Shown: piece by piece, positions 41,555-59,130 of the stretch
Layout: every line of letters begins with the position of its first letter
Position numbering within the stretch: the first letter of the stretch is position 1
The notes under the pieces: generated by a model
What the model was told of the DNA's origin: nothing
Database searches by the model: none
What the model saw: only the letters and a program-made list of their open reading frames with translations
Source: an uncultured Actinomycetes bacterium
GTDB taxonomy: Bacteria; Actinomycetota; Thermoleophilia; Gaiellales; JAICJC01
Assembly (NCBI GenBank): GCA_963708725.1
Contig: CAVPTL010000006.1
Coordinates: 96,226-160,225 of the forward strand
Direction of reading: 5' to 3'
DNA: 64,000 bases
Translations under genes and position numbers: made by a program

Positions 41555-42346
41555 TTAGAGCCGATCCCAGGGCACGTCGGTGTACAGCCGTTGGAGCCGC
41601 GACATCAGGTCTCCGTCCACGGGCACGTCGACGGCGTCGATTCGACCGACGGGCGCGATACCGCGGGCGTTGGTGATGATCGCCGCCTCACATCCTGCGA
41701 TGTCCGAGAGCCTGACCGGCCCGCGGCGGGTCGGGATACCCGCTGCCGCGAGGCGCGGCTCGAGCAGCTGCATCGTGATCCCCCGAAGCGCCGGGGCGTC
41801 AGGCCATATGAGTTCCCCTTCGAGCATGAATCCGACGTTGGCGACGCTGGCCTCGGAGATCACACCGTCGTTGTCGGTGAAGAGCGCGTCGTCGAAGCCC
41901 GCGTGGCGCGCCATCCGGGCGTGGTGTCCCTGCCCGAAGCCGCCGAGGTGCTTCACATGGGCGAGCGTGCGTTGGTAGGTCACCGATTGAAGCGCCTGGG
42001 GGGTATTCGAGACGCCGCCGGGGGGCCGCAGCGTGACCATCACCCAAAGCTCGCCCGGGCGGTGCGATTGGTACACCATTACTCGAAGCGAAGCGTCTCG
42101 AACATCTCGGAGCGCGTGGCGGGCGGCATGACAAACGCGCTTGCCGTCGAGCCCGACCCCGAACAGCTCGCGCGAGCCCTCGTCCAAGCGCGCCAGGTGG
42201 GCATCGAGACCGCGCACCCGCGCGTCGCGCACCTGCATGGCGGTGAAGTGGCCGCCGTTTGCCAGCGCGATTTGCTGCAGCGCCTCCAACGTCGGCGGCC
42301 GCTGGTCGATCTCGATCCGAAAGACGCCGTGCGCCGCCACTATCAC
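41555..42346 (-). CDS. Aminotransferase class IV family protein
   Basis: 263 aa. ..LDAHLARLDEGSRELFG.., ..VKHLGGFGQ.. and ..LRGITMQLL.. resemble fold-type IV PLP enzymes. This is a motif-level call. Confidence 0.65.
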   Translation of the reverse strand: MIVAAHGVFRIEIDQRPPTLEALQQIALANGGHFTAMQVRDARVRGLDAHLARLDEGSRELFGVGLDGKRVCHAARHALRDVRDASLRVMVYQSHRPGELWVMVTLRPPGGVSNTPQALQSVTYQRTLAHVKHLGGFGQGHHARMARHAGFDDALFTDNDGVISEASVANVGFMLEGELIWPDAPALRGITMQLLEPRLAAAGIPTRRGPVRLSDIAGCEAAIITNARGIAPVGRIDAVDVPVDGDLMSRLQRLYTDVPWDRL

Positions 42347-44507: not shown

Positions 44508-44627
44508 GACGACAAGCCTATCGAGTGGCCGCCGGGCGAGGTGGGGGATCCGTTGGGACGATCCGCCATAATGCGTCGGTCTGCATGGCGCCCAGCGGCG
44601 CCTATCGCCACAAGAAAGGCTTGCCAC

Positions 44628-45632
44628 ATGTCTGTGAAACGACGCCTCCTGCCGGCGGCTGCGCTGGTCGCGCTTGCGCTCCCGGCCACCGCGGCAGTAG
44701 CGGCCGCGCCCACGGTGCAGACGATCGGGGTTGGAAGTAATCCGGCCGCGATCACAATTTCTGCCGCCCGGGCACAGGCCTACGTTGCCAACGACGGCAG
44801 CGTCTCTGTTGTGAACCTGCGAAACACCACCCAGACCGCCGAGGTCAGCACCGGCGTCAATCACGGGCAGACGGCGATCGCGTCGTTCCAAAACGGGTTC
44901 AAGGTCTACATCGGCGACTTCGCCCGAAACACCATGGTCGCGTTCAACCCCAAGACCCAGGCGATCACTCCCAACATCAAGGTCGGCCCCGGCGCGACCG
45001 ACATCGTCAACCCCAGCAACGGGTACGCATACGTGACGTCCTTCACGCAGCAGGGCGCAAAGGGCCGCATCCAGGTGGTCAAGGTCACCGGCAACACGCT
45101 CACCCGAAGCATCCCGCTGAACCAGGGCGCGGCGACCGCCACGGTGCTTCCCGGGACGCGTCACCTCTGGGCGGGCAGCGCGATCAGCGGCCGCGTATGG
45201 GTCGTGGACACGCGCACCGACACGGTCGTGAACCGCTTCATGGCGACCAGGTCCGGCCCGGTTGCCGGCATCGCCTTTAGCCCCGACAAGAAGCAGGCGT
45301 GGATCTCGGGCATCGGCGGGGTCACGGTGATGGATCGGGCCTCGGGCAAGATCCTCAAGTTCATCCCGATCACGAGCATCTTCTCGGGCAGCCTCGAGGC
45401 CGGCCCGATCGCGTTCAACCAGGCCGGCACGCGGGTGCTCGTCGTCAACTCCACCGATCCCGGCACTCCCGCGACAGGCACTGTTGCCGCGATCAACCCC
45501 CGCACCTGGAAGGTGACCGAGCGCATTCAGGTCGGCACCGAGCCGCTGGCAATGGCACTCGACTACAAGCGCGGTATGACCTACACCGCCAACTATCAGG
45601 ACGACACGCTGTCGTATTTCGCGACGCCGTAG
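44628..45632 (+). CDS. Secreted YVTN/YncE-like beta-propeller repeat protein
   Basis: Signal peptide MSVKRRLLPAAALVALALPATAAVAAAP. Repeated ~40-aa units follow (..VGSNPAAITIS..AYVANDGSVSVVN..). This is the 3' part of the 1163-aa ORF 42141..45632, whose upstream part is antisense to the TrxR-like gene. Confidence 0.75.
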   Translation: MSVKRRLLPAAALVALALPATAAVAAAPTVQTIGVGSNPAAITISAARAQAYVANDGSVSVVNLRNTTQTAEVSTGVNHGQTAIASFQNGFKVYIGDFARNTMVAFNPKTQAITPNIKVGPGATDIVNPSNGYAYVTSFTQQGAKGRIQVVKVTGNTLTRSIPLNQGAATATVLPGTRHLWAGSAISGRVWVVDTRTDTVVNRFMATRSGPVAGIAFSPDKKQAWISGIGGVTVMDRASGKILKFIPITSIFSGSLEAGPIAFNQAGTRVLVVNSTDPGTPATGTVAAINPRTWKVTERIQVGTEPLAMALDYKRGMTYTANYQDDTLSYFATP

Positions 45633-45746
45633 CGTCGTTTGAGGTGAGTGCGGGGATCGGCGTCGTCGCGGGCGGCGCCGGTTCCCGCGTTCCCGGTCGT
45701 GGGGAGCGGTCCAGAGTTGCCGAAAGAAGGCTGCTATGGTCGAGAA

Positions 45747-46151
45747 GTGCGTCTGCTCCTGGCGATCAGCTGTTGTCTGGCGGCTCTGTTGGCATGTGGT
45801 TGGTGGTGGACGCATCGCACCCACGACGGCCAGCTCGACGCGCAGGTGTCGCTGGGGCCGTCATGTCAGCACAAGAACCCGCCGCGAGCCTGCCGCCGGC
45901 TCCAGGGCCATCCGCTTCAGGTCGCGCTCTTCGGCGTCCACAACAACACCTTTTTCCGGGTCTATACGACTGACGGGTCGGGGCATCTTCATGTGCGTGT
46001 TCCCGAGGGCAAATACTGGATTGAGTTCGAGTACGGCAACACGGGGATGTTGACCAACCGCGCGCAGAAGCCGTTCACGGTCACCGGCCACGGCGTCGAC
46101 ATCGGCCCGGTCTGGCCGCGAGTATTCCGTCCCTACAACGGTTTGGGATAG
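45747..46151 (+). CDS. Putative small lipoprotein with a prealbumin/carboxypeptidase-regulatory-like beta domain
   Basis: The GTG start gives VRLLLAISCCLAALLACGWWW (lipobox LLAC). ..FRVYTTDGSGHLHVRVPEGKYWIEFEY.. follows. The start is uncertain. Confidence 0.4.
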   Translation: MRLLLAISCCLAALLACGWWWTHRTHDGQLDAQVSLGPSCQHKNPPRACRRLQGHPLQVALFGVHNNTFFRVYTTDGSGHLHVRVPEGKYWIEFEYGNTGMLTNRAQKPFTVTGHGVDIGPVWPRVFRPYNGLG

Positions 46152-46205: not shown

Positions 46206-46895
46206 ATGCGTGAACGCCCGTACACCCTGCTCAGCTGCAGCATGTCGATGGACGGCTACATCAGTAGCGCCAGCTCGCGGCTGCTGCTTTCGAACGACGC
46301 CGACTTCGATCGAGTGGACGCCGTTCGTGCCTCGTGCGATGCGATCCTGGTCGGTGCGACGACTGTGCGGGTGGATGATCCGAGGCTTCTGGTGCGGTCA
46401 CGGGAGCGTCGCGATGAGCGCACGGCACGCGGACTCGGGTCGTCGCCGATCAAGGTGACGGTCACCCGGCGCGGCGAGCTCAGCCCACAGGCGAACTTCT
46501 TCACCGCCGGCGACGTCGAGAAGCTGGTGTACTGCCCGAGCTCGGGGGTGCATGATGCCTGCGCGCGACTCGAGCCTGCGGCCGCGGTTGTGGACGGCGG
46601 CCGCGCGGTGGATATGAGCAGGGTCGGCAGCGACCTTGCGTCCCGCGGCGTGCAGCGGCTGATGGTTGAGGGCGGCGGCAACGTGCACACCCAGTTTTTG
46701 ACCGACAATCTCGTGGACGAGCTGCAGTTGGTTGTCGCTCCCGTGTTCGTCGGCGACTCCAAGGCTCCCAGGTTCGTACGTGACGGGTGCTTTCCCTGGA
46801 GCACCGGGCACCGCGCGACGCTGGCCGAGGTGACCCAGATCGGAGACGTCGTGCTGCTGCGCTACGCGCTGTCGTCGCGGTTTGAGACCGACTGA
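46206..46895 (+). CDS. RibD C-terminal-domain reductase family protein (diaminohydroxyphosphoribosylaminopyrimidine reductase-like)
   Basis: ..LLSCSMSMDGYIS.., ..VRASCDAILVGATTVRVDDPRLLVR.. and ..RLMVEGGGNVHTQFL..DELQLVVAPVFVG.. are RibD_C/DHFR-like motifs. Confidence 0.8.
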   Translation: MRERPYTLLSCSMSMDGYISSASSRLLLSNDADFDRVDAVRASCDAILVGATTVRVDDPRLLVRSRERRDERTARGLGSSPIKVTVTRRGELSPQANFFTAGDVEKLVYCPSSGVHDACARLEPAAAVVDGGRAVDMSRVGSDLASRGVQRLMVEGGGNVHTQFLTDNLVDELQLVVAPVFVGDSKAPRFVRDGCFPWSTGHRATLAEVTQIGDVVLLRYALSSRFETD

Positions 46896-46899
46896 CCGG

Positions 46900-49329
46900 T
46901 CATGGCGAGCCGCCGGCTCGTGCATCCGGGCTGAACGCCCCCAGGAAGCGGTCTCGGAATGCGCTCATCCGCCACACGGGCGCCGCGGGAGCCGGGCGCA
47001 TGCCGTCGCCCCAACCCCAGCTCGAGATCCGGCGCAGCACTTCTGGGTCGTGGGCGATGATCGACACCGGCACGTCGTGGTTGGTGCCGAATCCTGTGAC
47101 GCCGTGCGACGGCTGGTGGTCGCCAAGCACGATCAGCACCAGGTTCTTGTTGCCATAGTGGCGGACGAACGAGAAGAGTGCGCGCATCGAGTACTCGATC
47201 GAGTGGGCGTACCCCTGCTGCTGGTCGGCGAGTCCGCTCTGGTCGACCGGCAGCGTGTTGAAGATGGAGCCGTTGCCGACCTTGTTCCACGGGACCATCG
47301 GCGGTATCCGGGTCCATGGAAAGTGGCTGGACACGGTGTCGACCTCGGCGAACACCGGGCGCCGGTGGGGCTTTGCCAGCTCCAGGCGCTGAAGGGCGAG
47401 ATAGGTGTACTGGTCGGGCATGGAGGCATACGCGTATGTCGGGCCGTGATAGCCCACGTCGGTTCGGTTGTACACCCGGTCGTAGTGGTAGAAGGCCATC
47501 CCCTGCGGCCAGGGGCGGTTGTCGGGCGGCACGTCGTCGATGACCCTCCACCCGGCGCGGTTGAACGCCTGGCTGAGCGTGAACCGGTGGCTCGCCATGA
47601 GCTGGTCGTAGCGACTTGGAAAGTCGACCCAGACGCCCGCCTGCATCGTGGAGTGGGCCAGCCAGCTGATCCCGCCGAAGGTGGGCGAGGTGAGCCAGCC
47701 GCTTCGAGACCCGAAGCCGGCGGCGTTCAGTTGCTGGGTACCGCTGTCCAGGACGTCATCCACCCGCGGCGAGTAGGACGACCCCTCGACCGCCACCTGG
47801 CCGTAGCTCTCGACGAACACCAGCAGGACGTCCTTGCCGCGGAGAGCGGTCAGCAGCCGGTTGCCGGGCGTCGAGCGGTAGGGGTCGTGGCGGATCTGGG
47901 CGGCGAAGATCGCCCCGTCGTTGAGGTCGGTGTTCACCGTCCGCACCTCCTGCACCACGAGGGAGGCTGCGCTCATGGAGGCGATGGGCGTCCCGGAGAC
48001 GAACTGCGCGCCCAGCGCCCAGAACACCAGCCATGCGCCGCCGAGCGCGGTGACCACGCGCAGCGACCACAGGCGGTGGCCGGTGGAAACGCGCACCATG
48101 CGCCGCAGCGCCAGCGTCGGAAGCGCGAGCGCGACGATCACCAAAAGCGCCAGCCCGACCTCGACCAGATCGGCGCGCGTGCTTCCCACCGTCTCGCGCA
48201 GCGTCTCGGCCCCGATCGAGGCGTAGCCCCAGTCCTCCACGGGGTTGAACGGGCGGTCGAACGCCGTCAGGAAGCCGGCGTCGAGCAGCTTCACCACCAC
48301 CAGCAATCCCAGCAGAGGACCGGCGACGAACGGTACGAACCGCCGAAACCGGTCCGGCAGGGCGAGCGCCAGCGCGACGATCACCAGGGCCTCGATCGGG
48401 AGCCTCACGAACGCGTCGACATGCACACGTTGCGGCTGGATCGGAGCGAGCAGCGCGACCCACACGATCAGGAGCGCCACGATGGTGAGCGCGACCCCGG
48501 TGCCCGCCCGCAGTCGTTGGTGCGGGCTGCCGGCCGGCCGGACCGGGGGCAGATCGGGATCGGGGCTCCGCTGCTCGCCGGTCGACGCACTCTCGGCGGA
48601 CGCGTGTCGGTGGCGCCAGAGCCAGTACACGTCGCGGCCAAACGACTCGGCCAGCAGGGCCAGCACCGTCGCCAGCCCGAGGCGCTCGAGGGCCAGAGGC
48701 AGGACGCCCGCCGCGGCGATCACCAGCGCGATGCCCACCGCCGCGGTCACGACCTTCCGCCAGTCACGCCTGGGAAGCTGCCCGCGCATCCATGGGAACG
48801 GCCAGCCCGCCGCCAGGAATGCGTATCGAGCTGCGCCGATGGCGAGCACCCACCAGCCGACCGTGGGGGCGACGTACAGGCTGAGCGTCAGGATCAGAAA
48901 CGCGTCGACCTCGCCGTCAAGCGCAGCGCCAAACCGCGACTCGGTGTGGGTGTTCCGTGCGACCCGGCCGTCGACGAAGTCCAGGCACAGCGCGGTGGTC
49001 GCGAGCGCCACCAAAGCCGCCACCGACGTGTGACTGGCGAAGGAGTCCGCGGTCAGCGCCGCCACGTCGACCACCAGCGCCGCTCTGACCACGGTGACCC
49101 AGTCGGCCGGGCCCAGCCCTTCCCAGCCGTCGAGGGCGAGGCTGCGCGCGAGCAGCGTGTACAGGAGGACTCCACAGACCAGGCCAACCACCCATCCCGT
49201 ACTGCTCAGCCCGACCGTCGCAGCAAGCGCCGTGAGCATGAGCAGCTGGACGACCGGCATCACGGCCAGACCGACGTGAACCGTTCTCAGCGTCCTGTCA
49301 TACTCGGCCATGTGAAGGGTACCGGGCAC
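46900..49329 (-). CDS. Fusion protein: CDP-alcohol phosphatidyltransferase (N-terminal) + multi-TM linker + sulfatase/alkaline-phosphatase-superfamily domain (C-terminal)
   Basis: N-terminus: ..DFVDGRVARNTHTESRFGAALDGEVDAF.. is the DG(x2)AR(x8)G(x3)D(x3)D motif. C-terminus: ..VLLVFVESYG.., ..GGISWLAHSTMQ.., ..VDTVSSHFPW.. and ..VLIVLGDHQP.. are sulfatase-type motifs. 809 aa. Confidence 0.8.
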   Translation of the reverse strand: MPGTLHMAEYDRTLRTVHVGLAVMPVVQLLMLTALAATVGLSSTGWVVGLVCGVLLYTLLARSLALDGWEGLGPADWVTVVRAALVVDVAALTADSFASHTSVAALVALATTALCLDFVDGRVARNTHTESRFGAALDGEVDAFLILTLSLYVAPTVGWWVLAIGAARYAFLAAGWPFPWMRGQLPRRDWRKVVTAAVGIALVIAAAGVLPLALERLGLATVLALLAESFGRDVYWLWRHRHASAESASTGEQRSPDPDLPPVRPAGSPHQRLRAGTGVALTIVALLIVWVALLAPIQPQRVHVDAFVRLPIEALVIVALALALPDRFRRFVPFVAGPLLGLLVVVKLLDAGFLTAFDRPFNPVEDWGYASIGAETLRETVGSTRADLVEVGLALLVIVALALPTLALRRMVRVSTGHRLWSLRVVTALGGAWLVFWALGAQFVSGTPIASMSAASLVVQEVRTVNTDLNDGAIFAAQIRHDPYRSTPGNRLLTALRGKDVLLVFVESYGQVAVEGSSYSPRVDDVLDSGTQQLNAAGFGSRSGWLTSPTFGGISWLAHSTMQAGVWVDFPSRYDQLMASHRFTLSQAFNRAGWRVIDDVPPDNRPWPQGMAFYHYDRVYNRTDVGYHGPTYAYASMPDQYTYLALQRLELAKPHRRPVFAEVDTVSSHFPWTRIPPMVPWNKVGNGSIFNTLPVDQSGLADQQQGYAHSIEYSMRALFSFVRHYGNKNLVLIVLGDHQPSHGVTGFGTNHDVPVSIIAHDPEVLRRISSWGWGDGMRPAPAAPVWRMSAFRDRFLGAFSPDARAGGSP

Positions 49330-49337
49330 CTGGTGTT

Positions 49338-50166
49338 TTGGATTGTTCGCGCTGCACCTCGAGCCCGGGCGGTCCGCCCGCAGACGGTCGCGATTTGAGC
49401 AGGGACACGCCAGCGCCCGACGTCGAGCCCCTCCGGCGAGCGCAGGAGGCGGCGTACGCCCCGGGCGAGTACGTCGGCCAACAGAGCTTCATGCGCGCCA
49501 GCGAGATCCGGGCGCTGGCCGGGCGGGCCGGCATCGCCGAGGGCACCTCCGTGCTCGACCTGTGCTGCGGGATCGGTGGGCCGGGGCGGCTGATCACGCG
49601 GGAGCTGCGGTGTGTGTATCTGGGAATCGATCGCGACCCCGACGCGATCGCGATCGCCCGCACTCGGGCTGACGGCCTACCGTGCCGGTTCGAGGTCGGC
49701 GAAGTGCCGCCCCTGCCGCGAGGCCCATACGACGTGGTGCTGATGCTGGAGACCATGCTCGCTTTTGCGGATAAGGAGCTGCTGCTTGGTGAGATCTCCG
49801 GCGCGCTCGGCGCCGGAGGCCGGTTTGCCTTCACGATGGAGGCGGGGCGGCCGCTGAGCGCCGCGGAGCGGGAGCGGATGCCCAACTCCGGCACGGTATG
49901 GCTAACGCCGCTCGCGACCATGAGCCGGATGCTGGAGCGGGCCGGGTTGGTCGTGCGCGGGGTGGATGACTGCACCGAAGCCCACGGCGCGGCGGCGGCC
50001 TCCCTCCTGGATGCCTACGCGGCCGACGCGCCGGCGATCGCGTGCGCAGATCGGGCAACCAGCGCTGGATGATCTGCTGGCCGCACACCGGTTGTGGGTG
50101 CAGTGGCTGGACAGCGGGCGCGTGCGCAAGGTCTCGGTGGTCGCCGAGAAATCCGAAGCCGGGTAA
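49338..50166 (+). pseudogene. Class I SAM-dependent methyltransferase with probable +1 frameshift near its 3' end
   Basis: ..VLDLCCGIGGPGRLITREL..YLGIDRDPDAIAIA.. is SAM motif I. The annotated frame stops at 50072. A well-coded continuation AQIGQPALDDLLAAHRLWVQWLDSGRVRKVSVVAEKSEAG* runs in the frame of ORF 49966..50166. Confidence 0.6.
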
Positions 50167-50176
50167 GGGTTGGCGC

Positions 50177-51136
50177 TCACGCATCGGCGGCGCTTTCGGG
50201 CCGGTAGATGAGGCGCCCGCGCCTCGCCGCCCGCCACCCGGCGAGCCACCCCGCGACCAGCACGAGCCCTCCGGGGAGGCTGGCTGCGATCACCATCACG
50301 CCATAGACGACGGCGGTCGCGGCGCCACGACCCGCGCCCAGGCCGGCCGCGGCGAACACCCATGCGGTGGCGCCCTCGCGCGGTCCCCAGCCGCCGATGC
50401 TCGGCAGCACCATGCCCAGCATCGCCAGCAGCGCCAGCGGCAGGAGCCGCGAGACCGGTGCGGTGACGCCGGCCGTCCGCGCGGCGATCAGGAACATGAC
50501 CGCGTAGCCCAGTACGGCCACGGTCGATGCAAACGCGACCGCGATCAACGCGTTCCTGCGAACCAGACCGTCGCGGATGTCGGCCACCACCCGGCTCCGG
50601 GCTCGCGCCCAGCGCGAACGCCCTCGTCCCCCGTGCATGCGGTCAACGAGAATGACGCAGCCGGCCGTTGCGACCAGCGCAACCGCCACCAGCGGCATGT
50701 ATGAGCGCACCGGTGAGGGCAGCACCAGGAGGACGGAGATCGTCAGCACCACCTGGACGACCTGTCCGGCAGTTCGCTCCCAGGCAACGGCCCGCAGCCC
50801 GCGGCCGACGTCTTGCACGTCGCGACCGTGGCTGACGCCGCGATGGATGTCACCGGCGACGCCACTCGGGAGCGTGACGTTGAGGAACAGCGCCCGGTAG
50901 TAGGCCGCGACGGCGGCGGGGAGGGAGAGATCCACGCCCAGGCCGCGGGCAACGATCTTCCATCGCCACGCACAGCAGACGGTGCTGACGAGACAGACGG
51001 CCGCCGCGGCCAGGAGGGAACGACCGTCGAGCGCGCGCACGCCGTCGAGGAACGGGCCGCTGCCGAGACGCCAGATCACCACCACGAGCGCGGCGGCTGC
51101 GATCACCGGACGGGCCCACCGAAGGCTGCCCCTCAC
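50177..51136 (-). CDS. UPF0104 / lysylphosphatidylglycerol-synthase-TM-region-like (flippase-like) membrane protein
   Basis: 319 aa, polytopic. ..CCAWRWKIVARGLGVDLSLPAAVAAYYRALFLNVTLPSGVAGDIHRG.. is the family's core motif. Its start overlaps the upstream gene's stop (51133-36). Confidence 0.8.
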   Translation of the reverse strand: MRGSLRWARPVIAAAALVVVIWRLGSGPFLDGVRALDGRSLLAAAAVCLVSTVCCAWRWKIVARGLGVDLSLPAAVAAYYRALFLNVTLPSGVAGDIHRGVSHGRDVQDVGRGLRAVAWERTAGQVVQVVLTISVLLVLPSPVRSYMPLVAVALVATAGCVILVDRMHGGRGRSRWARARSRVVADIRDGLVRRNALIAVAFASTVAVLGYAVMFLIAARTAGVTAPVSRLLPLALLAMLGMVLPSIGGWGPREGATAWVFAAAGLGAGRGAATAVVYGVMVIAASLPGGLVLVAGWLAGWRAARRGRLIYRPESAADA

Positions 51137-51954
51137 GGCAACACCAGCAGGTCGGCGTGGTCGATCGTGACGGCCAGGCAGCCGGCCCTGGCCTCCCGCA
51201 GACGCCGGCTTTGGTAGCGGCCGGCGTCAGTGGTCAGCGCGGGCTCCTGCTCACACGCAGCGCCCACCCAGCCGGCGAGCCACTCGACGGCCAGGGCCGT
51301 ATCGGCGACTCCCAGGCGCCACGGGCTCGGCCTGACGATGACCTCGGCCCCGAGCCGGCGAAACGCGTCTGCGGCGGCCTCGGCGGCATCCGGGCCGAGC
51401 AGGCGCCCGCGCCGCGTCGTGCGGCGCTGGTGCGCATCGAACGCTGCCGCCAGGCGTGAGTCGAGCGGATCCTCCGCGAGCCACTGGACGCGGCCGGTGA
51501 CCGAGAGTGTGAGGAGCACCGGGCACCCAGCTCCCGCACACGTCTGCACCAGCCTGCCCAGCTCGTCGGCCGTCAGCAGGTCGAGCAGCGCCGAGGAGGT
51601 GATGAGCGCCGCGCCGGCCAGCTGGTCGCGGCCGAGTCGTGTGACGTCGGAGAGCCTCGTCTCGACGGTGACCGCCGACCCGTCGGCGGCGGGGCCGGGC
51701 CGGTCGGTCTCGGCGACCGTCAACAGGTCAGGGTCGCGGTCGTGGAGGACCCACCGCTGCGGCCCGGCCAGGAGCGGGGCGAGCCACCGGCCCATCCCGC
51801 CGCTGCCGCAGCCGAGGTCGTGGATGACCAGCCGGTCGCCGGCCGGCAGGCGGGGGAGAAGGTGCGAGACGAGCTGCCGGGATCGGGCGACAGCGTCTGC
51901 CCGCTCGCGCAGGTCGAGCCAGGCGGGGCTGACCGGGATCGTCTCGACGGTCAT
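51133..51954 (-). CDS. Class I SAM-dependent methyltransferase
   Basis: 273 aa from [13 protein letters not shown]. ..LVIHDLGCGSGGMGRWLAPLL..WVLHDRDPDLL.. is SAM motif I. The ATG overlaps the GT stop (ATGA at 51954-51951). The upstream part of ORF 51133..52416 was rejected. Confidence 0.75.
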   Translation of the reverse strand: MTVETIPVSPAWLDLRERADAVARSRQLVSHLLPRLPAGDRLVIHDLGCGSGGMGRWLAPLLAGPQRWVLHDRDPDLLTVAETDRPGPAADGSAVTVETRLSDVTRLGRDQLAGAALITSSALLDLLTADELGRLVQTCAGAGCPVLLTLSVTGRVQWLAEDPLDSRLAAAFDAHQRRTTRRGRLLGPDAAEAAADAFRRLGAEVIVRPSPWRLGVADTALAVEWLAGWVGAACEQEPALTTDAGRYQSRRLREARAGCLAVTIDHADLLVLP

Positions 51955-53012
51955 CACGCCACTGCCGCGATCACGTCTGCGACGGCGGACACGGTGGTCG
52001 GCCAACCCGCGAGCGACTCGCGCCGCTCGCGCGCCGCCCGCCGCAGCCGCCGGCGCAGGTCGCTGTCCTCGAGCCAGGATCGCAACGCGTCGCTGAGCGC
52101 CGCGGCATCGCCGGGCGGCACGAGGAGGCCCGGTCGGACGCTTTCGGCGCCATGACCGAGAGCCTCCGGCACCCCGCCGACCGCGGCGGCCACCACCGGC
52201 AGTCCTCGTGCCAGCGCTTCGGTGACGACCATCCCGTACGTCTCGAAGCGCGACGACAGCACCAGCACATCCGCGGCGCTGTAGCTGCCGGCGAGCTCGG
52301 CTCCCGCCTGTGGACCCGGGAAACGCACCCGGCCGCTCAGCCCCCCAGCGGCGACGGTGTGACGCAGACGTTCGACGAATATCGGGTCGCGTTCCAGGCT
52401 GCCGACACACAGGCACTGCCAGTCAAGGTCATTCAGGGTCGCCAGTGCCTCGAGCAGCACGTCATGCCCCTTGCCGGGTATGACCGCCGCGACCGAGAGC
52501 AGAGAACCGGCGGTTGGGGTGCCCGGCGCGAGCCCGGCGGCGTCGACGCCGGGTTCGGCGACGTGGACGCGTTCGACCGGCAACCGGTAGAGCTGGAGGA
52601 GGACTCGCCGGGCCCACGCGCTGGTGGTGACGACCGACGCGGCGGCGGTGAGCACCGCCCCCTCCCGTTCCCGCGGGCCGTCATCCGCGGTGCCTTCGCC
52701 CAGCGGCATGTGCACCAGCACGACCAGCCGCAGACGGCGAGCCGCCGGGACGAGCACGTCGGGAGAGGGCGAGGCGACCAGACCGTCGACGAGGACGATG
52801 GCGCGATCGGGGATCCGGCAAAGGACATCCGCCAGCGCGGCGTGCGATGGTGCATCGGGCCACGGCCACGACCCGGCGACTTCGTGGATATGCACCGCCC
52901 AGCCCGCGGCGGCGAGGCCGTCGCACACCTGGCGGTCGTAGGCGTTGCCCCCGCTCGGCCGCGCCCGGTCGCCGATCCCTGCCGGGACGACAACGTGCAC
53001 TTCGGCGGTCAC
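51954..53012 (-). CDS. Glycosyltransferase, GT4 (group 1) family
   Basis: 352 aa. ..[11 protein letters not shown].. and ..[39 protein letters not shown].. form the E-x7-E region of retaining GT-B enzymes. Confidence 0.85.
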
Positions 53013-53407
53013 AACCCGCGCTCGTAGCTCGCCGAGGCGATGTGCGACTCGTGCAGCGTGACGACCAGCCCGTCGAGCTCGCGCGCGGCATCCCCGAGGG
53101 CACCGGCATGCGCGCGCTCCGCCAGCCGATCCGCGATCAGCCGGGCGAGTGCCTCCGTTGTGGTGTTGATGCCGGCGAGCGCCGGTTCGTCATCGAGATT
53201 GCGGTAGCTGAACGCCGAGAGCACCGCATGCAGCTCCTCGGTCGCTCGGCCGATGTCGACGACGATGCCATCGGCGTCGAGCTCCGCGCGCCTGAACGTG
53301 GCGTCGACGACATAGGTCGCACCGTGGAGCCGCTGTGCGGGCCCGAACGCCTCGCCTCGCAGGCTGTGGGCGATCATCATGTGGTCACGGACGGTCACGC
53401 TGAACAC
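53009..53407 (-). CDS. 6-pyruvoyl-tetrahydropterin synthase (PTPS/QueD)-fold protein, non-canonical active site
   Basis: 132 aa. ..DHMMIAHSL.. aligns to the QueD F.AAHRL motif. ..[12 protein letters not shown].. aligns to KCGRLHGHSF, so the catalytic Cys and the second His of HGH are both Ala. It overlaps the GT start by 4 nt. Confidence 0.8.
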
Positions 53408-53411
53408 GGCT

Positions 53412-54392
53412 CTAGCCCCCGCCGTAGGTGATCGTGTGACACACGGCCGGGAGGCTCCCCGAAGCCAGCTGGGCCATCACCTCGGGAAGCTCGTCGAACT
53501 GCGACTCGCCGGTGAGGAGCGCATCGAAGGCGGGGTCGCGCAGCAGCTCGAGGGCGATCGCCATGCGGTCGGCGGCCGTGCGGCGCAGGGCCCGTGCGGG
53601 GGAGACGACGCCGACCTGGCTCGAGCGGATGCCGAGGCGGCCGGAGTGGAACGCTCCTCCCAGCGACAGCCGCACCTCGGTGTCGCCGTACCAGCTGAGG
53701 TCGAGCACGGTGCCCTCGGCAGCGAGCAGGTCGAGCGCGCGCTGAAGGCCCGCTGATGTTGCACTCGTGTGTACGGCGAGATCGCAGCCGCCGTCGGCCT
53801 CCTCCGGGAGGGCGAAATCGACCCCGAGCGCAGCCGCGATCTCTGCCCGCTGCGGATCGACATCCACGAGGGTGACGCGCATCGCCGGAAACCGTTGGAG
53901 CAGCCGCGCCACGCAGCAGCCGAGCATCCCCGCGCCGACGACGACAACCCGGTCGCCGACCAGCGGGGCAGCGTCCCACAGGGCGTTGACCGCCGTTTCG
54001 ACGGTGCCGGCGAGGACAGCGCGAGCGGGTGGGATGTCCTCCGGCACGATCGATACGGCACCGTCCGGAACGACATACACGGTCTGGTGCGGGTAGAGGC
54101 AGAACACGGTACGGCCGCGCAGGTCGGGCGGCCCTTCCTCGACAACGCCGACGTTCAGATAGCCGTACTTGACCGGGCCCGGGAAAGCCCCATCCTGGAA
54201 CGGCGCCCGCATCCTCACACGCTGGTCCGGCGGCACGCCGCCGCGGAACACGAGCGTCTCGGTGCCGCGGCTGATCCCCGATCGTACGGTGCGAACCAGA
54301 ACGTCGGCCGGCCCGGGTTCGGGCAGTTCGACCGGACGGATCTCGCCACAACCGGGCGCTCGCAACCAGAACGCGTGTGCCTCCCTACTCAT
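53412..54392 (-). CDS. Zinc-type/MDR-family alcohol dehydrogenase-like oxidoreductase
   Basis: 326 aa from [10 protein letters not shown]. ..[15 protein letters not shown].. and ..[17 protein letters not shown].. (Rossmann) are MDR motifs. The ATG at 54392 overlaps the upstream methyltransferase stop by 8 nt. Confidence 0.8.
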
Positions 54393-55095
54393 GGCCGCTC
54401 GCCTGCTGTGGTTCGTCGCCGGTGCAAGCGGCGCGGGACCCGGCCGCCAGGAACGTCGTCCCAAAGACCAGCTCCGTCCAGGAGCAATCCGCCAGCGTCT
54501 CCTGCATGGCTGTACGAATCACCTCCCACGGACGGCGCATGATCCACTCGTCGATGGAACCGAATGGCCGCACAACCGCGGTTCCGAGCTGCGCCAGCCA
54601 CCAGGGAGCGTTGTCGGGAGCCTTCAGATCCAGCACGACCCAGCGCCCACCGGCGGAGAGCGCGGCGGCGCCGCGGGTGATGACGTCTCCGCATTCAGGC
54701 ACCTGTGTGAGGGCGTAGGTGGAGAGGATCGCGTCGACCTCGGGTGGGAAGTCGAACTCGGCCGCGTCGGCGTGTACGAGGGTGATGTTGCGCCAGCCAT
54801 GGGCATCCATCCGCTGCCGGGCTTGAGCGAGCATCGCGTCGGTCAGATCGACGCCGACGATTCGGCCCCCGGGACCGATCAATCGCTCGATCAGCGAGAA
54901 GTTCAGCCCGGTGCCGCAGGCGATGTCGACCACGTTGTCACCCGGGCGAAGCCCGAGTGCTTGGAGGGCCCGGAGGCGGTGTGACCGCTGCGGGTATCCG
55001 GGAGCGGGGTAGAACCGGGAGGTGAGGTCGTAGTGCTTTGCCTTCTTGCGGTATGTCCCGATCAGGCGCTCTCGCCTATGGTCGGTCGTGCTCAC
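54385..55095 (-). CDS. Class I SAM-dependent methyltransferase (first gene of six-gene operon)
   Basis: 236 aa. ..VVDIACGTGLNFSLIERLIGPGGRIVGVDLTDAMLAQAR.. is SAM motif I plus the post-I acidic residue. Confidence 0.8.
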   Translation of the reverse strand: MSTTDHRRERLIGTYRKKAKHYDLTSRFYPAPGYPQRSHRLRALQALGLRPGDNVVDIACGTGLNFSLIERLIGPGGRIVGVDLTDAMLAQARQRMDAHGWRNITLVHADAAEFDFPPEVDAILSTYALTQVPECGDVITRGAAALSAGGRWVVLDLKAPDNAPWWLAQLGTAVVRPFGSIDEWIMRRPWEVIRTAMQETLADCSWTELVFGTTFLAAGSRAACTGDEPQQASGHE

Positions 55096-55212: not shown

Positions 55213-55680
55213 CTACGAATTGGATCCGGCCGGCGTCGCGGACTCGACCGCGGCCTTGATCGCCACCATCTCACGATCCATGACACGCTTGATCCTGCCG
55301 TTGAGAACGCTTCCCGGGATCGCGCGCATGATGCTCTCGAGGTCGACCTCAACCCACATCATCGCCTCGGTCTCCCGCTCGTCTATCGGCTCGAACTTCA
55401 TTCCCCAGCGCGCCGCGGAGGTGCCCATCGGCCCGGCGAACGCCAGGCGGCGCTGCGCGTCGACCACGGTCACGTTCTGGCTGCGGTGGCGACTGGATCC
55501 GAGTATTCCCTTCGCCCGCTGCTCGATTCGCGACCCGGGCCGAAGCGCGGCCCCGTCGCTGACCCAACACTCACGCACCGTTGGCGCCCACTCTGGCCAG
55601 CGTCCGACGTCGCAGATGTACGTCCACACTTCCGGGAGGCTGCTACGGATTGTCAGGCGGCTCTCTGATCTAATCGCCAT
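55213..55680 (-). CDS. SRPBCC-family (polyketide cyclase/dehydrase-like) protein
   Basis: 155 aa. ..IRSSLPEVWTYICDVGRWPEWAPTV.. is typical of the SRPBCC ligand-binding fold. Confidence 0.75.
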   Translation of the reverse strand: MAIRSESRLTIRSSLPEVWTYICDVGRWPEWAPTVRECWVSDGAALRPGSRIEQRAKGILGSSRHRSQNVTVVDAQRRLAFAGPMGTSAARWGMKFEPIDERETEAMMWVEVDLESIMRAIPGSVLNGRIKRVMDREMVAIKAAVESATPAGSNS

Positions 55681-55779: not shown

Positions 55780-56445
55780 TCAGCAACAGCCGCAGGTGTC
55801 TTCGCCCCGCCAGGCTTCGCGGCCCTCGCGCACGGCCACGGCGGCGATAACCAGCCCGGCGACTGGGTCGGCCCACCACCAGCCGTACAGAGCGTTTGCG
55901 CCCAGGCCGATGAGAAGCGCGACGGACAGGTAGGCGCAGATCATGTTCTGCTGTCCCTCGCTCTGCGTCGCTTGGGAACCGAGTTGGCGGCCGACCTTGC
56001 GTTTTGCGCGGGCGAGCATCGGCATCGTCGGGGCGGTCACCAGCGCCAGCCCGATCCCGACCCAGCTTGCTTTTGGGTGTGTGCCGGTAAAGGCCCCAAG
56101 CGACTCGACCACGACATATCCGGCGAGCAGGAAGAATGACCCAGCGATCAGCTGCTGCGCCCGGCGTTCAGCGACCGGCGATTGGCCGCGACCCCCGCTG
56201 AAGAGCCAGACGATCACGCCTCCGGCCAGCACTTCGATCAGGCTGTCGATTCCAAATGCGACCAGCGCCACCGAACCCGCGACCACGCCCGCTCCGACGG
56301 CGATGGCGAACTCGATCACGTGCCACGCGTTCCCACCCCAGGCGAGCATCTTCGCACGGCGTTCCAGCCGGGCGCGCTCAACCTCAGAGAGCGCGGGGAG
56401 TCGCCGGATCGTGTGAAGCTTCAGTGGCGTCGCGTCGGTACTCAT
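55780..56445 (-). CDS. Cation-diffusion-facilitator-like membrane protein (TM domain only) with C-terminal CGCC
   Basis: 221 aa. ..GSVALVAFGIDSLIEVLAG.. is the CDF TM2 metal-site motif. The protein ends ..EDTCGCC. Its start overlaps the ArsR stop (56442-45). Confidence 0.7.
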   Translation of the reverse strand: MSTDATPLKLHTIRRLPALSEVERARLERRAKMLAWGGNAWHVIEFAIAVGAGVVAGSVALVAFGIDSLIEVLAGGVIVWLFSGGRGQSPVAERRAQQLIAGSFFLLAGYVVVESLGAFTGTHPKASWVGIGLALVTAPTMPMLARAKRKVGRQLGSQATQSEGQQNMICAYLSVALLIGLGANALYGWWWADPVAGLVIAAVAVREGREAWRGEDTCGCC

Positions 56446-56801
56446 GCGATCACCGTGGTCGCGGTGGGCGCCAGTGCGTGAAGCAGATCGACGCCTTCAT
56501 CGAGGAGCCGGTACATGACCATCTTTCCGTCGCGGCGTGACGCGACCAGCCCCGCGGTTCGCAGTTGCCTCAGGTGGTGGGAGACGAGCGCGTCGGAGCG
56601 CTCCACGATCCAGGCGAGGTCGCACACGCAGAGCTCGTTTCCGTCCCGAAGTGCGTATGCGATCTGAAGCCGGGTCGGATCACTCAATGCTCGGGCTTGG
56701 GCTGCCAGCCCCTCGGAGATCGCGATGCTGAGACGGTTCGTTCGCAGCTCCTCAGCCCTCGCGAGATCAAGGCAAAGCAGGTCACATCGATCGTTTGCCA
56801 T
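56442..56801 (-). CDS. ArsR/SmtB-family metalloregulator with alpha3 Cys site
   Basis: ..LSDPTRLQIAYALRDGNELCVCDLAWIV..SHHLRQLRTAGLV.. is an ArsR signature. The ELCVCDL thiolate site resembles that of CadC/ArsR-type metal sensors. Confidence 0.85.
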   Translation of the reverse strand: MANDRCDLLCLDLARAEELRTNRLSIAISEGLAAQARALSDPTRLQIAYALRDGNELCVCDLAWIVERSDALVSHHLRQLRTAGLVASRRDGKMVMYRLLDEGVDLLHALAPTATTVIA

Positions 56802-56858
56802 ACAGTCACTCTAACACGCATTTGAATGTGCGAATGATCGGCGGGCTAGCATCGGGGG

Positions 56859-57293
56859 ATGTTGACCAATCGTTCGGCACCTCCCGCGACTGTGACGCCG
56901 GTGCTCGTCTACCCCGACGTGCGCGCCGCGGTGGCGTGGCTCGAGGCGGCCTTCGGGTTCGAGGAGCGAGTGCGCATCGGCGACGCGCACCGCGCACAGC
57001 TACGGATCAATCCCGACGCGGCGCTGGTCGTCGCCGACGTACACGGCGCCCAGGTCGCGCCGACCGCGGGCGTCGTGACTCACATTCTCAAACTGCGCGT
57101 CGCCGATGTTGATGCCGCGGTCGCCCGCGCAACCGGTCATGGGGCGCGGATCGTGAGCGAGCTCGAGACGCACGTGTACGGCGAGCGCTCGTGCATGGTC
57201 GAGGATGTCGGCGGTCACCGGTGGGAGTTGAGTCAGACCGTGCGCGACGTCGAACCCGAGGAGTGGGGCGGTGTCAGCACCGGCCAGTGGTGA
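56859..57293 (+). CDS. VOC-family (glyoxalase/bleomycin-resistance) protein
   Basis: 144 aa. ..VTPVLVYPDVRAAVAWLEAAFGF.. and ..CMVEDVGGHRWELSQ.. are VOC motifs. The TGA stop lies inside a REP copy. Confidence 0.8.
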   Translation: MLTNRSAPPATVTPVLVYPDVRAAVAWLEAAFGFEERVRIGDAHRAQLRINPDAALVVADVHGAQVAPTAGVVTHILKLRVADVDAAVARATGHGARIVSELETHVYGERSCMVEDVGGHRWELSQTVRDVEPEEWGGVSTGQW

Positions 57294-57320
57294 ATAACGG
57301 TGCCAGGCACCGGTATTCAC
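57290..57320. repeat. REP-like palindromic element, 31-nt subfamily (centre A), one arm mismatch
   Basis: GTGAATAACGGTGCCAGGCACCGGTATTCAC (GGT instead of GTT in the right arm). It fills the gap between the convergent gene ends at 57293 and 57322. Confidence 0.9.
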
Positions 57321-57321
57321 G

Positions 57322-57825
57322 TCAGTGCGGTGGGGGCGGGATGGAGCCGACCCCGGGCGCTTCGTCGGGCCACACCAGCAACACCGCGCATGGTGCGTGA
57401 TCCACGACAAACCGGGTTACGTGACCGAGGCTGTGCGGTCCCAGGCGTGACCGGTCGCCGTCGCGCGCGGCCACCAGCAGATCGACATCGCCGGCCAGCG
57501 CCGCGACGATCTCCCGCTCGATCCGACCGCCGCGAATCGTGATCTGCTCGACGTTCGCGCGGCCCAGCCGATCCGCCGCGGCGGCCAACAGCTCCGTACC
57601 CTCGGCGTCGGCCACGTCCTGCATATGGGGCGGCGGCCTGTGGCCCAACCGCGCGCGGCCCAGCAGGTTGGCCGAAGCGGCCTCGGCGGTCGCCGCCGCG
57701 TCGCTCGGCGTGTAGTGCAACACCGCGACGCTGGCATCGGGCGGGATGGCGGCTGCCGCCGCGTCAATGCACCCCTGCCATGTTCCTTCGACGATCCAGA
57801 TGACGACGCGCACGCCTCCCATCAT
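57322..57825 (-). CDS. Universal stress protein family protein
   Basis: ..VVIWIVEGTWQGCIDAA.. and ..LLVAARDGDRSRLGPHSLGHVTRFVVDHAPCAVLLV.. are USP motifs. The start ATGATG at 57825/57822 overlaps the permease stop. Confidence 0.75.
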   Translation of the reverse strand: MMGGVRVVIWIVEGTWQGCIDAAAAAIPPDASVAVLHYTPSDAAATAEAASANLLGRARLGHRPPPHMQDVADAEGTELLAAAADRLGRANVEQITIRGGRIEREIVAALAGDVDLLVAARDGDRSRLGPHSLGHVTRFVVDHAPCAVLLVWPDEAPGVGSIPPPPH

Positions 57826-59072
57826 GTCACCACTTTCAGCGAAATCCACAGCGCGACGGTGGCTGTGATCAGCACCGGGGGGACGGTGATCGCGCCAAGC
57901 CGGAGAAACTCGGTGGTCGACGGGTCAAGGCCGCGCCGCTGCAGCACCCGCCGCCAAAGCAGCGTCGCCAGCGAGCCAACGTAGGTCAGATTGGGGCCGG
58001 CGTTCACGCCGATCAGCACCGCGAGCACCGGACCCGGCCCGGCTGCCGCGACCGCTGGGAGCATCAGCAGCACCGCCGGCAGGTTGTTCACGAGGTTGGC
58101 CAGGACGGCAGCCACGAACGCGATCGCCAGAAGCGCCGCAAGCGAACTCCCGCCGGGCACGAGGTGGACAATCACCGATCCCAGCCCGTGGATCGAGACG
58201 GCCTCCACGACCAGCCCCAGGGCGAGCACGAAGGCGAGGAACGGCAGGTCGACGGCTGCTGCAATCTGTCGCGTCGAGACCTTGCCCTGGGCGAGCGCGG
58301 GGACGGCCAGCACCACCGCACCCGTCAGCGCCGCAAAGGCGGGGCTGATCCCGGCGATCGACGTGACGAAGAATCCCACCAGGGTCAATCCCACCACAGC
58401 CAGCGCGAACATCGGCACGGGCGCCCGTGGACCGGTGACCCGTTCACCGCGACCCACCAGATCCGAGCCGAAGAACCGTCGCATCACCACCCACTCGACT
58501 GCGATTGCAGCGAGCCACGGCAGCGCCATCAGCGCCCCGAACCGGGCGAACGAGAGCCCACTTGCCTTGAACGCGAGCAGGTTGGTCAGGTTCGAGACGG
58601 GGAGCAAGAGCGAGGCAGAGTTCGCGAGGTGGGTGCATGCGTACACGTGTGGTTTGGCCCGTAACCGCAGTCGCGTGACGGTCGTGAACACCACCGGGGT
58701 GAGCAGCACGACGGTGGCGTCGAGGCTGAGCACCGCCGTCACGGTGCTCGCCACCACGAACACCAGAGCAAACAGCTTGATCGGCTCGCCGCGCGATCCC
58801 GCCGCCATCCACTGTCCCGCCGCGTCGAACAGCCCGTAGCGGTCGCAGAGATCAGCGAGCACGAGCACCGCGGCCAGGAATGCGATGGTCGGAAGCAGGC
58901 TGCGGGTCTCGGATTTCGCCTGATCGAACGGCAATACACCGATTGCGATCGCAAACACCGCGGCAGGTACTGCGACCAGCGCCTCGGGCAGGCCACGGGG
59001 TCGAACGACCGCGAACCCGAGCGTCGCCATCAGCAGCGCGAGCCCAACGACCTCCGAACCGAGGCTTGGCAT
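57822..59072 (-). CDS. ArsB/NhaD-superfamily (SLC13-like) anion permease
   Basis: Polytopic. ..ANSASLLLPVSNLTNLLAF.. and ..GVNAGPNLTYVGSLATLLW.. are the duplicated hairpin motifs of this family. Start set at ATG 59072. The ORF-track N-terminus (MPGTVIH..) is encoded by the REP copy. Confidence 0.75.
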   Translation of the reverse strand: MPSLGSEVVGLALLMATLGFAVVRPRGLPEALVAVPAAVFAIAIGVLPFDQAKSETRSLLPTIAFLAAVLVLADLCDRYGLFDAAGQWMAAGSRGEPIKLFALVFVVASTVTAVLSLDATVVLLTPVVFTTVTRLRLRAKPHVYACTHLANSASLLLPVSNLTNLLAFKASGLSFARFGALMALPWLAAIAVEWVVMRRFFGSDLVGRGERVTGPRAPVPMFALAVVGLTLVGFFVTSIAGISPAFAALTGAVVLAVPALAQGKVSTRQIAAAVDLPFLAFVLALGLVVEAVSIHGLGSVIVHLVPGGSSLAALLAIAFVAAVLANLVNNLPAVLLMLPAVAAAGPGPVLAVLIGVNAGPNLTYVGSLATLLWRRVLQRRGLDPSTTEFLRLGAITVPPVLITATVALWISLKVVT

Positions 59073-59099
59073 CACCACGACTTTACCCGCTCGGCGCCC

Positions 59100-59130
59100 G
59101 TGAATAACGGTGCCTGGCACCGTTATTCAC
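59100..59130. repeat. REP-like palindromic element, 31-nt subfamily (centre T)
   Basis: GTGAATAACGGTGCCTGGCACCGTTATTCAC is a perfect palindrome. It lies in the divergent intergenic region between the starts at 59072 and 59158. Confidence 0.9.

Follow-up and report, generated by a model that had tools for sequence, protein, structure and literature searches.

The minus-strand genes at 50177-55095 of a 64,000-nt stretch of Gaiellales DNA (the window; contig CAVPTL010000006.1, GC about 67%) lie at the heart of a conserved locus of Actinobacteria that comprises about nine genes and is called here the SCO6650/SCO6655 or "PTPS-IV" cluster. There is little doubt that the window locus is itself a conserved SCO6650-type orphan cluster. 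Its pathway probably starts from the product of GTP cyclohydrolase II (GCH II), reduced by a RibD_C enzyme. For the whole route we propose a model to which we give somewhat less than an even chance: a GTP-derived polyol is tailored, made lipid-linked and flipped, and its head group is transferred outside. More tentatively still, we speculate that the cluster makes an undescribed phospholipid or envelope decoration, in which a ribitylamino-pyrimidine bearing glycosyl and methyl groups (or a pterin formed from that pyrimidine), made from GTP by early enzymes of the riboflavin type, would serve as head group, with MprF-like export and transfer by a divergent LtaS/EptA-like enzyme. The genes concerned encode the following proteins.

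54385-55095, minus strand: MT1, a UbiE/arsenite-methyltransferase-like class I S-adenosylmethionine (SAM) methyltransferase of 236 aa (Pfam Methyltransf_25, 59.4 bits)
53412-54392, minus strand: a zinc-less NAD(P) oxidoreductase of the medium-chain dehydrogenase/reductase (MDR) fold, 326 aa, starting with ATG at 54392; core gene
53009-53407, minus strand: PTPS-IV, a T-fold protein of 132 aa and the ortholog of SCO6650 in S. coelicolor; core gene
51954-53012, minus strand: GT4, a retaining family 4 glycosyltransferase of 352 aa (Glycos_transf_1, 110.7 bits); core gene
51133-51954, minus strand: MT2, a divergent class I methyltransferase-like protein of 273 aa; near-core
50177-51136, minus strand: LPG_synthase_TM (MprF-flippase-like, UPF0104), a polytopic membrane protein of 319 aa, or 309 aa with a later start; core
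49338-50166, plus strand: MT3, a class I SAM methyltransferase (Methyltransf_31/25/23 matches), convergent with the operon; accessory
48550-49329, minus strand: CDP-OH_PT, a CDP-alcohol phosphatidyltransferase domain, the N-terminal part of an 809-aa fusion (PF01066, 51.6 bits); core
46900-48549, minus strand: the C-terminal half of the 809-aa fusion, in which an alkaline-phosphatase (AP)-superfamily domain comes after about five membrane helices
46206-46895, plus strand: RibD_C, a reductase of the archaeal/fungal Rib7 type, 229 aa (PF01872, 126 bits); core

Scanning one genome per species with the PTPS-IV alignment, we found a relative encoded in at least 597 species genomes, the best 80 of which are all Actinomycetota. 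These 80 carriers include Solirubrobacterales, Thermoleophilia and Gaiellales metagenome-assembled genomes, with up to 85% identity, together with Micromonospora, Streptomyces, Amycolatopsis, Pseudonocardia, Actinoplanes, Nocardioides, Acidothermaceae and others. With tblastn we mapped nine proteins of the window, plus E. coli RibA, onto the best 80 loci. The genes for MDR, PTPS-IV and GT4 are colinear and adjacent, in that order, in 76 of the 80, across many actinobacterial orders. Gene counts refer to those 57 loci whose flanks extend for 8 kb or more on each side, with linkage scored within 10 kb. On this scale MDR, PTPS-IV and GT4 are each linked in 57/57 loci, LPG_synthase_TM in 55, MT2 in 54, CDP-OH_PT in 52, RibD_C in 48, GCH II in 44, the AP domain in 35, MT3 in 18 and MT1 in 4, where it is often displaced. 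The AP domain lies next to CDP-OH_PT on the same strand in 28 of its 35 loci and is separate in the other 7. Outer-gene order and strand are highly variable, yet the gene set stays linked.

A preliminary description of this DNA had read the six genes as one functional unit for an uncharacterised pathway and had put forward neighbourhood conservation as a check; the conservation proved strong. Synteny supports the unit but not its boundaries: MT1 is a lineage-specific accessory gene, and both MT1 and MT3 are accessory to Thermoleophilia-like lineages, while CDP-OH_PT, RibD_C and GCH II belong to the core. The linkage counts uphold the suggestion that RibD_C, the CDP-OH_PT fusion and the membrane protein are parts of one system. 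As for novelty, no function has been assigned to the cluster, and our full-text literature searches found no paper assigning it a product, but a homolog of the PTPS-like protein has been crystallised (PDB 3D7J) and the PTPS-IV neighbourhood is in print (PMC5445326).

The family reaches well beyond these loci. More than 8000 metagenome proteins match PTPS-IV, the best 120 at 71-92% identity and many labelled Gaiellales-type, and 748 clusters of 50%-identity representatives match it at E ≤ 1e-10. Distant members (52-60% identity) keep the PTPS-IV gene adjoining GT4; among these, locus L090 retains MDR, RibD_C and MT2 as well, and L084 retains RibD_C. Most of the contigs with distant members are too short to be informative on context. 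On one contig of 33% GC (L083, 239-1331), a GT4 gene comes directly after a PTPS-IV gene (47% identity), and from the low GC of the contig the pair seems to reach beyond the high-GC Actinomycetota.

All six minus-strand open reading frames (ORFs) lie where the preliminary description placed them, RibD_C (46206-46895) and the CDP-OH_PT fusion (46900-49329) are located as it described, and Pfam and NCBIfam bear out its family calls, with MDR and MT2 below Pfam cut-offs. The operon begins with MT1, which has a GTG start with GAGGAG upstream. Three of the five junctions it listed are exact: the 8-nt overlap of MT1 and MDR (54385-54392), the 4-nt gap between MDR and PTPS-IV (53408-53411) and the GTGA overlap of PTPS-IV and GT4 (53009-53012). 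A junction at 51951-51954 was not found; GT4 and MT2 instead share a TGATG with a 1-nt overlap at 51954, or a GTGA at 51954-57 if MT2 starts at GTG. The GTGA overlap of MT2 and LPG_synthase_TM (51133-51136) requires translation to start at the GTG at 51136; L082, a near-identical contig, has the membrane protein called about 30 nt later, at 309 aa, which leaves a 26-nt gap after MT2. Start/stop overlaps are by themselves frequent in high-GC operons, and the above-chance signal here is the synteny, not the overlaps. The block as a whole is divided, over the two strands, into four or more transcription units. A third methyltransferase gene is present at 49338-50166 as described, but its frame is broken: in a DNA alignment with L082, which is 99% identical, a 1-nt insertion (T) at 50043 disrupts it, so that the span is not a multiple of three. 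The MT3 ORF ends at 50072 and the conserved C-terminus runs on in the +1 frame to 50166, reflecting either a sequencing error or a genuine pseudogene. Between 45500 and 56500, Rfam gave no RNA family match at E ≤ 1, a search for a sigma-70-like promoter found none, and terminator-like sites occur only at background level.

The PTPS-IV protein matches the T-fold family PF01242 with 83.8 bits (cut-off 22.4), and its residues 1-132 align with residues 21-152 of 3D7J ("Uncharacterized protein SCO6650", S. coelicolor) at E = 1.3e-59, a full-length match that identifies it, by sequence, as the SCO6650 ortholog. Residues F21-G22-P23-A24-Q25 form the FGPAQ motif, invariant or nearly so in the family alignment. 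FGPAQ has been named as the signature of the PTPS-IV subfamily, whose neighbourhoods contain PF00925 (the GTP cyclohydrolase II family) and RibD_C (PMC5445326); the window shares both the motif and the RibD_C neighbour with this subfamily of COG0720. In the family alignment and by hhalign against E. coli QueD, the position of the catalytic Cys (CxxxHGH or CxxxxxHGH) is taken by the invariant Ala24, within a segment of 10 residues (letters not shown). Of the zinc ligands corresponding to QueD H16, H31 and H33, H14 and H28 are kept and the third His is replaced by the near-invariant Ala30. The Asp-His pair is replaced by Ser67 and Tyr68. Glu120 and the TTE motif, which hold the 2-amino-4-oxopyrimidine ring, are retained. 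With its catalytic residues replaced, PTPS-IV is not a working PTPS or QueD. The 3D7J paper is said to report neither bound zinc nor PTPS activity, and Phillips (2012) reportedly treats the PTPS-IV subfamily of COG0720. PTPS-GT4 fusion proteins exist. Separately, six metagenome proteins of 373-855 aa (P0126, P0142, P0155, P0165, P0179 and P0210; e.g. L085:1674-4241) carry three tandem PTPS-IV repeats per chain and may form a single-chain T-fold pseudo-trimer; the L085 surroundings are uninformative.

MDR scores 25.7 bits against Pfam ADH_zinc_N, below the cut-off of 31.8, and its top NCBIfam matches, BchC and HpnZ, are both far under their cut-offs. By hhalign against E. coli Tdh, R42 occupies the position of Cys38, Y78 and L79 those of His63 and Glu64, and the structural-zinc lobe is missing altogether. 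The Rossmann motif, GAGMLG, remains. The replacement residues at the zinc site are conserved across 77 family members. From these substitutions and the loss of the structural-zinc lobe we take MDR to be a zinc-less oxidoreductase. Its AlphaFold model is poor (pLDDT 53.5), from a shallow alignment of sequences at least 81% identical. GT4 is a GT-B enzyme with clear matches to PF00534 (Glycos_transf_1, 110.7 bits) and PF13692 (96.1 bits). Its nearest solved relatives are sucrose-phosphate synthase (SPS, 6KIH) and MshA (3C4Q), both of which take sugar- or polyol-phosphate acceptors, and its relatives in the PDB include BshA. An anti-phage "GT4-conflict" identity was considered but set aside, the Pfam match being weak (34.6 bits) and outscored by generic GT4 models. 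MT2 scores 22.2 bits against Methyltransf_25, below the cut-off of 27, and matches no NCBIfam family; its conserved motifs are DLGxGtG, HQRR and LLGPDA.

The early chemistry is read from RibD_C and the cyclohydrolase. RibD_C scores 138 bits against TIGR01508, below the cut-off of 186, and its closest solved relatives are 5XV5 (archaeal, 5e-31) and 6P8C (5e-26). The depositors named 6P8C a 2,5-diamino-6-ribosylamino-pyrimidinone 5'-phosphate reductase; the PDB names 5XV5 only "Conserved protein", and we take it to be a Methanosarcina Rib7. These relatives are archaeal/fungal reductases of the diamino compound that work prior to deamination. The RibD_C product is likely a ribityl (polyol) 5'-phosphate with a ring suited to the T-fold site.

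The switch residue of the cluster GCH II, which aligns with Tyr105 of E. coli RibA, is Tyr in 31 loci, Met in 19, His in 3 and Leu in 2. SCO6655 was reportedly described by Spoonamore et al. in 2006 as a GCH II paralog that halts at formylated formamidopyrimidine (FAPy), with Met replacing Tyr. In Amycolatopsis a creatininase-family gene adjoins the Met-type cyclohydrolase (211 bits; L053:13917-14615), and a tblastn survey found such a gene in 24/24 loci with a non-Tyr cyclohydrolase (within L031-L080) and in 0/31 Tyr-type loci. The family is that of the archaeal FAPy deformylase ArfB, and the creatininase-family gene of the cluster may be a FAPy deformylase. This exact co-occurrence over 24 loci suggests that the two sub-types converge, most likely sharing 2,5-diamino-6-ribosylamino-4(3H)-pyrimidinone 5'-phosphate as intermediate. 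The arrangement resembles early riboflavin synthesis in archaea and fungi (ArfA/ArfB/ArfC, Rib7), both in the pre-deamination type of its reductase and in the creatininase-family gene that accompanies non-Tyr cyclohydrolases. It differs in that the cluster cyclohydrolase has the GCH II rather than the GCH III fold, and in that the cluster is without deaminase, lumazine synthase and riboflavin synthase.

Against this background the window and S. coelicolor loci can be compared. S. coelicolor SCO6650-SCO6655 includes the full-length PTPS ortholog, and Streptomyces loci have the same colinear block of CDP-OH_PT and MDR-PTPS-GT4-MT2-LPG_synthase_TM. The window locus belongs to the Tyr-type sub-variant: it lacks a creatininase gene, and its RibD_C is orthologous, at 60-77% identity. 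It also differs in its non-adjacent GCH II, in the fusion of CDP-OH_PT to the AP domain and in the extra MT1 and MT3.

The remaining conserved genes encode a membrane module. The CDP-OH_PT domain scores well above the PF01066 cut-off of 22, and its motif, D117xxDGxxARx8Gx3Dx3D142, is complete and conserved across the family. In the model, the N-terminal 260 residues of the fusion superpose on PgsA (7DRJ) with TMt 0.71-0.73. Four or five hydrophobic helices at residues 279-443 precede the AP domain, as in LtaS and EptA. The AP domain has four invariant motifs, FVESYG, GGxSWLAH, SSHxPW and LGDHQP, and E507 (FVESYG), S555/T550, H669 and D737-H738 (LGDHQP) are invariant in its family; from motif order, these residues appear to correspond to LtaS E255/T300/D475/H476. 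Its top Foldseek matches are full-length MCR-1 (9nww, 2.8e-5), LtaP (4uop), LtaS (2w5r), YqgS and PbgA. Of known domains it most resembles, on modelled structure, the phospho-headgroup transferases LtaS, EptA and MCR-1, although the fold match is weak. With LtaS, EptA (MCR-1) and OpgB it appears to share a membrane-anchored AP-fold domain with E...S/T...H...DH motifs, and in some loci an OpgC-like acyltransferase partner; it differs from them in being fused to the lipid-synthesising CDP-OH_PT. The preliminary description called this half a sulfatase. We rejected a formylglycine sulfatase (PF00884), as the protein contains no C/SxPxR (C/S-x-P/A-x-R) motif; among homologs, a formylglycine-type motif match falls within the AP domain in just 5 of 38, and a precomputed PF00884 Sulfatase match occurs on 6 of 120 homologs among the matches listed.

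The LPG_synthase_TM protein (PF03706, 92 bits) has about 7-8 hydrophobic segments and is a separate flippase-like protein of 319 aa. Unlike MprF, it has no C-terminal aminoacyl-phosphatidylglycerol (lysyl-PG) synthase domain, and would work like the flippase half of MprF only. Taken together, the membrane genes may be read as a system in which a phosphatidyl-X lipid is made and flipped and phospho-X is transferred outside. Lipoteichoic acid (LTA), osmoregulated periplasmic glucan (OPG) and lipid A phosphoethanolamine systems all follow this make-flip-transfer logic.

Some loci contain further genes of this kind. An Acyl_transf_3 (AT3) acyltransferase gene, without counterpart in the window, directly adjoins the fusion gene in nine Solirubrobacterales-like loci (L002, L003, L004, L007, L009, L010, L015, L021 and L037; e.g. 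L003:13975-15765), and the L007 copy additionally matches OpgC. Four Amycolatopsis loci (L046, L053, L057 and L079) have an inositol-monophosphatase (IMPase)-family gene (e.g. L053:14633-15445) and a second GT4 paralog inside or near the cluster. CDP-OH_PT and GT4 placed around a polyol phosphate, with an IMPase-family gene in some loci, recall the logic of phosphatidylinositol phosphate (PIP) synthase, PimA and MshA in Actinobacteria, except that the polyol of the cluster would be a ribitylamino-pyrimidine and not inositol.

The model that we favour builds on the gene families, their synteny, the status of their motifs and the creatininase co-occurrence, all directly observed. It would proceed in six steps. 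In step 1, GCH II, encoded outside the window, would open GTP to 2,5-diamino-6-ribosylamino-4(3H)-pyrimidinone 5'-phosphate; in Streptomyces-type loci the FAPy-forming paralog and the creatininase-family deformylase would reach the same compound. In step 2, the Rib7-type RibD_C would reduce the ribosyl to a ribityl group, yielding a polyol phosphate with a 2-amino-4-oxopyrimidine ring attached. In step 3, the zinc-less PTPS-IV would bind this ring and, with it, MDR, the MshA/SPS-like GT4 and MT2 (here also MT1 and MT3) would tailor the compound by redox chemistry, glycosylation and methylation. In step 4, CDP-OH_PT would transfer a phosphatidyl group from CDP-diacylglycerol to the product, in the way that PIP synthase acts on inositol phosphate. 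The MprF-like LPG_synthase_TM protein would then flip the lipid (step 5), and the LtaS/EptA-like ectodomain would move the phospho-head group onto an envelope acceptor (step 6). Steps 1 and 2 have fair support, each from independent evidence; the order and chemistry of steps 3-6 are suggested by analogy with the families involved. The GTP-derived, lipid-linked head group anticipated in the preliminary description fits the conserved gene set.

Several observations weigh against this model. Because no cluster member has a known product, steps 3-6 are drawn wholly from family analogy. The similarity of GT4 to MshA and SPS lies mainly in the donor-binding half, and the CDP-alcohol enzyme could equally take a soluble CDP-alcohol, like AF2299/DIPPS. 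No GCH II is encoded within the 64 kb of the window; several close relatives of the locus likewise have no adjacent GCH II. The C-terminal 550 residues of the fusion have no Pfam match even at E ≤ 10, Sulfatase and LtaS included. Foldseek matches of the AP domain have E-values of 3e-5 to 8e-4 and probability 1.0, but TM-scores of 0.2-0.5, and because these are low the domain has a supported resemblance to MCR-1 and LtaS, not proven membership. The AlphaFold model of the fusion has a pLDDT of 66 overall, and of 70-90 over much of the AP domain. In 22/57 loci no AP domain lies within 10 kb, which suggests that the transfer step may not be universal. Finally, PTPS-IV has been called "involved in the synthesis of F420", on unpublished work (PMC5041015).

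That last point belongs to a rival explanation in which the cluster supplies a riboflavin or F420 precursor: 5-amino-6-ribitylamino-uracil would be made by an archaeal-style cyclohydrolase, deformylase and reductase with PTPS-IV as the missing deaminase, the other genes being unrelated. The trio of GCH II, creatininase-family protein and Rib7-type reductase does mirror the archaeal ArfA/B/C logic. A hydrolytic deaminase, however, normally needs a full metal site, which PTPS-IV lacks; MDR and GT4, for which this route has no need, are linked to PTPS-IV in all 57 loci, and some proteins are PTPS-GT4 fusions. No F420 genes were found among the called genes of L001 and L082. Apart from this unpublished link to F420, the PTPS-IV literature (Zallot 2016, PMC5041015; AGeNNT, PMC5445326) offers no function, and in it the GT4, MDR, flippase, CDP-OH_PT and AP-domain partners are undescribed. 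We regard this explanation as improbable. A soluble glycosylated, methylated pterin seems to us unlikely too, if not quite to that degree. The preliminary description had likened the genes to pteridine-glycoside synthesis in cyanobacteria, with which, as with canonical PTPS/QueD, they share a T-fold, a ring-anchoring Glu and a GT4 partner. The analogy fails on two counts: PTPS-IV is without the PTPS catalytic residues, and the conserved partners are GCH II and a Rib7-type reductase, not the GTP cyclohydrolase I and sepiapterin reductase of the pteridine-glycoside and tetrahydrobiopterin (BH4) pathways, the operon's own reductase being MDR-fold. A route adapted to the cluster would have MDR rearrange or oxidise the GCH II product to a dihydroneopterin-phosphate-like pterin for PTPS-IV, GT4 and methylation, with the membrane proteins for export or anchoring only. 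It can call on the retained Glu120 and TTE residues, on the conservation of GT4 and methyltransferases and on the GCH II-based bypass to dihydroneopterin phosphate known in Chlamydia (PMC4161248). Yet it asks for catalysis from a protein missing the Cys, the Asp-His pair and one zinc ligand, and for a roundabout reduction of ribosyl to ribityl followed by re-oxidation. The called genes of L001 and L082 include no GTP cyclohydrolase I (PF01227) or short-chain dehydrogenase/reductase gene, and the near-universal CDP-OH_PT and the AP domain are left unexplained.

Two further explanations question the unity or the role of the locus. Its genes might form two unrelated adjacent modules, one phospholipid- or LTA-like (CDP-OH_PT, AP domain, flippase and GT4) and one for a GTP-derived cofactor (RibD_C, GCH II, PTPS-IV and MDR). 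The spread of the window genes over several transcription units on both strands would allow this, and a divergent LtaS-like enzyme could act separately, given that LTA-making Actinobacteria are without clear LtaS orthologues (PMC3196553). But members of both supposed modules are interleaved in the single operon MDR-PTPS-GT4-MT2-LPG_synthase_TM, and the linkage persists over many orders despite repeated rearrangement, so we give this explanation only a small chance. Smaller still is the chance of a specialised-metabolite cluster, for an antibiotic or pigment of modified pyrimidine nucleoside-like type, even though the locus is rich in tailoring genes, with a glycosyltransferase and three methyltransferases, and SCO6655 and SCO6652 of S. 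coelicolor, putative counterparts of genes in the locus, are listed as up-regulated late in growth or development in two transcriptome tables. The cluster occurs in hundreds of species, and PTPS-IV is 70-92% identical across classes, with its thousands of near-identical matches coming from soil metagenomes; such breadth and identity are the mark of core physiology rather than of specialised metabolism. No regulator, resistance or efflux gene is conserved alongside the cluster in the loci compared or among the called genes of L001 and L082. Four known identities can be set aside as well: since the defining features of each are absent, the locus is not the pteridine-glycoside pathway, and it encodes neither a queuosine/BH4 enzyme nor a sulfatase nor MprF.

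An SRPBCC gene upstream (55213-55680) was considered as a member of the unit and rejected, since the related locus L001 does not have it. Also close upstream, an ArsR-type helix-turn-helix and cation-efflux gene pair (55780-56801, minus strand) is followed by Usp and ArsB/CitMHS transporter genes at 57322-59120; together, the genes at 55780-59120 look like an unrelated metal or stress island. On the other side, a 996-aa ORF (42834-45824, minus strand) joins a cyclic-nucleotide-binding domain to a pyridine-nucleotide-disulfide oxidoreductase, and is probably over-extended because the near-identical contig calls a 557-aa protein and a separate beta-propeller gene. A 925-aa ORF (38770-41547, plus strand) corresponds to an AAA_16/AAA_22 and GerE (LuxR-type) regulator on L082 and adjoins a class IV aminotransferase gene (41555-42346); no conserved linkage of this regulator ORF to the cluster was seen.

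Two proteins of the cluster were reportedly studied biochemically and structurally around 2006-2008, with no function emerging. The present analysis joins the soluble enzymes of GTP-derived chemistry to a module for lipid synthesis, flipping and transfer, giving a specific model that is testable in culturable carriers. The orphan pathway is very widespread and its logic unusual. Actinobacteria are without clear LtaS orthologues, though some make LTA (PMC3196553), and the LtaS/EptA-like enzyme of the cluster could be their "missing" LtaS-type activity. If the model is true, the known chemistry of bacterial envelopes would gain a head group derived from a nucleobase, and the model would also be relevant to how LtaS-type products arise in Actinobacteria, where no LtaS is recognisable.

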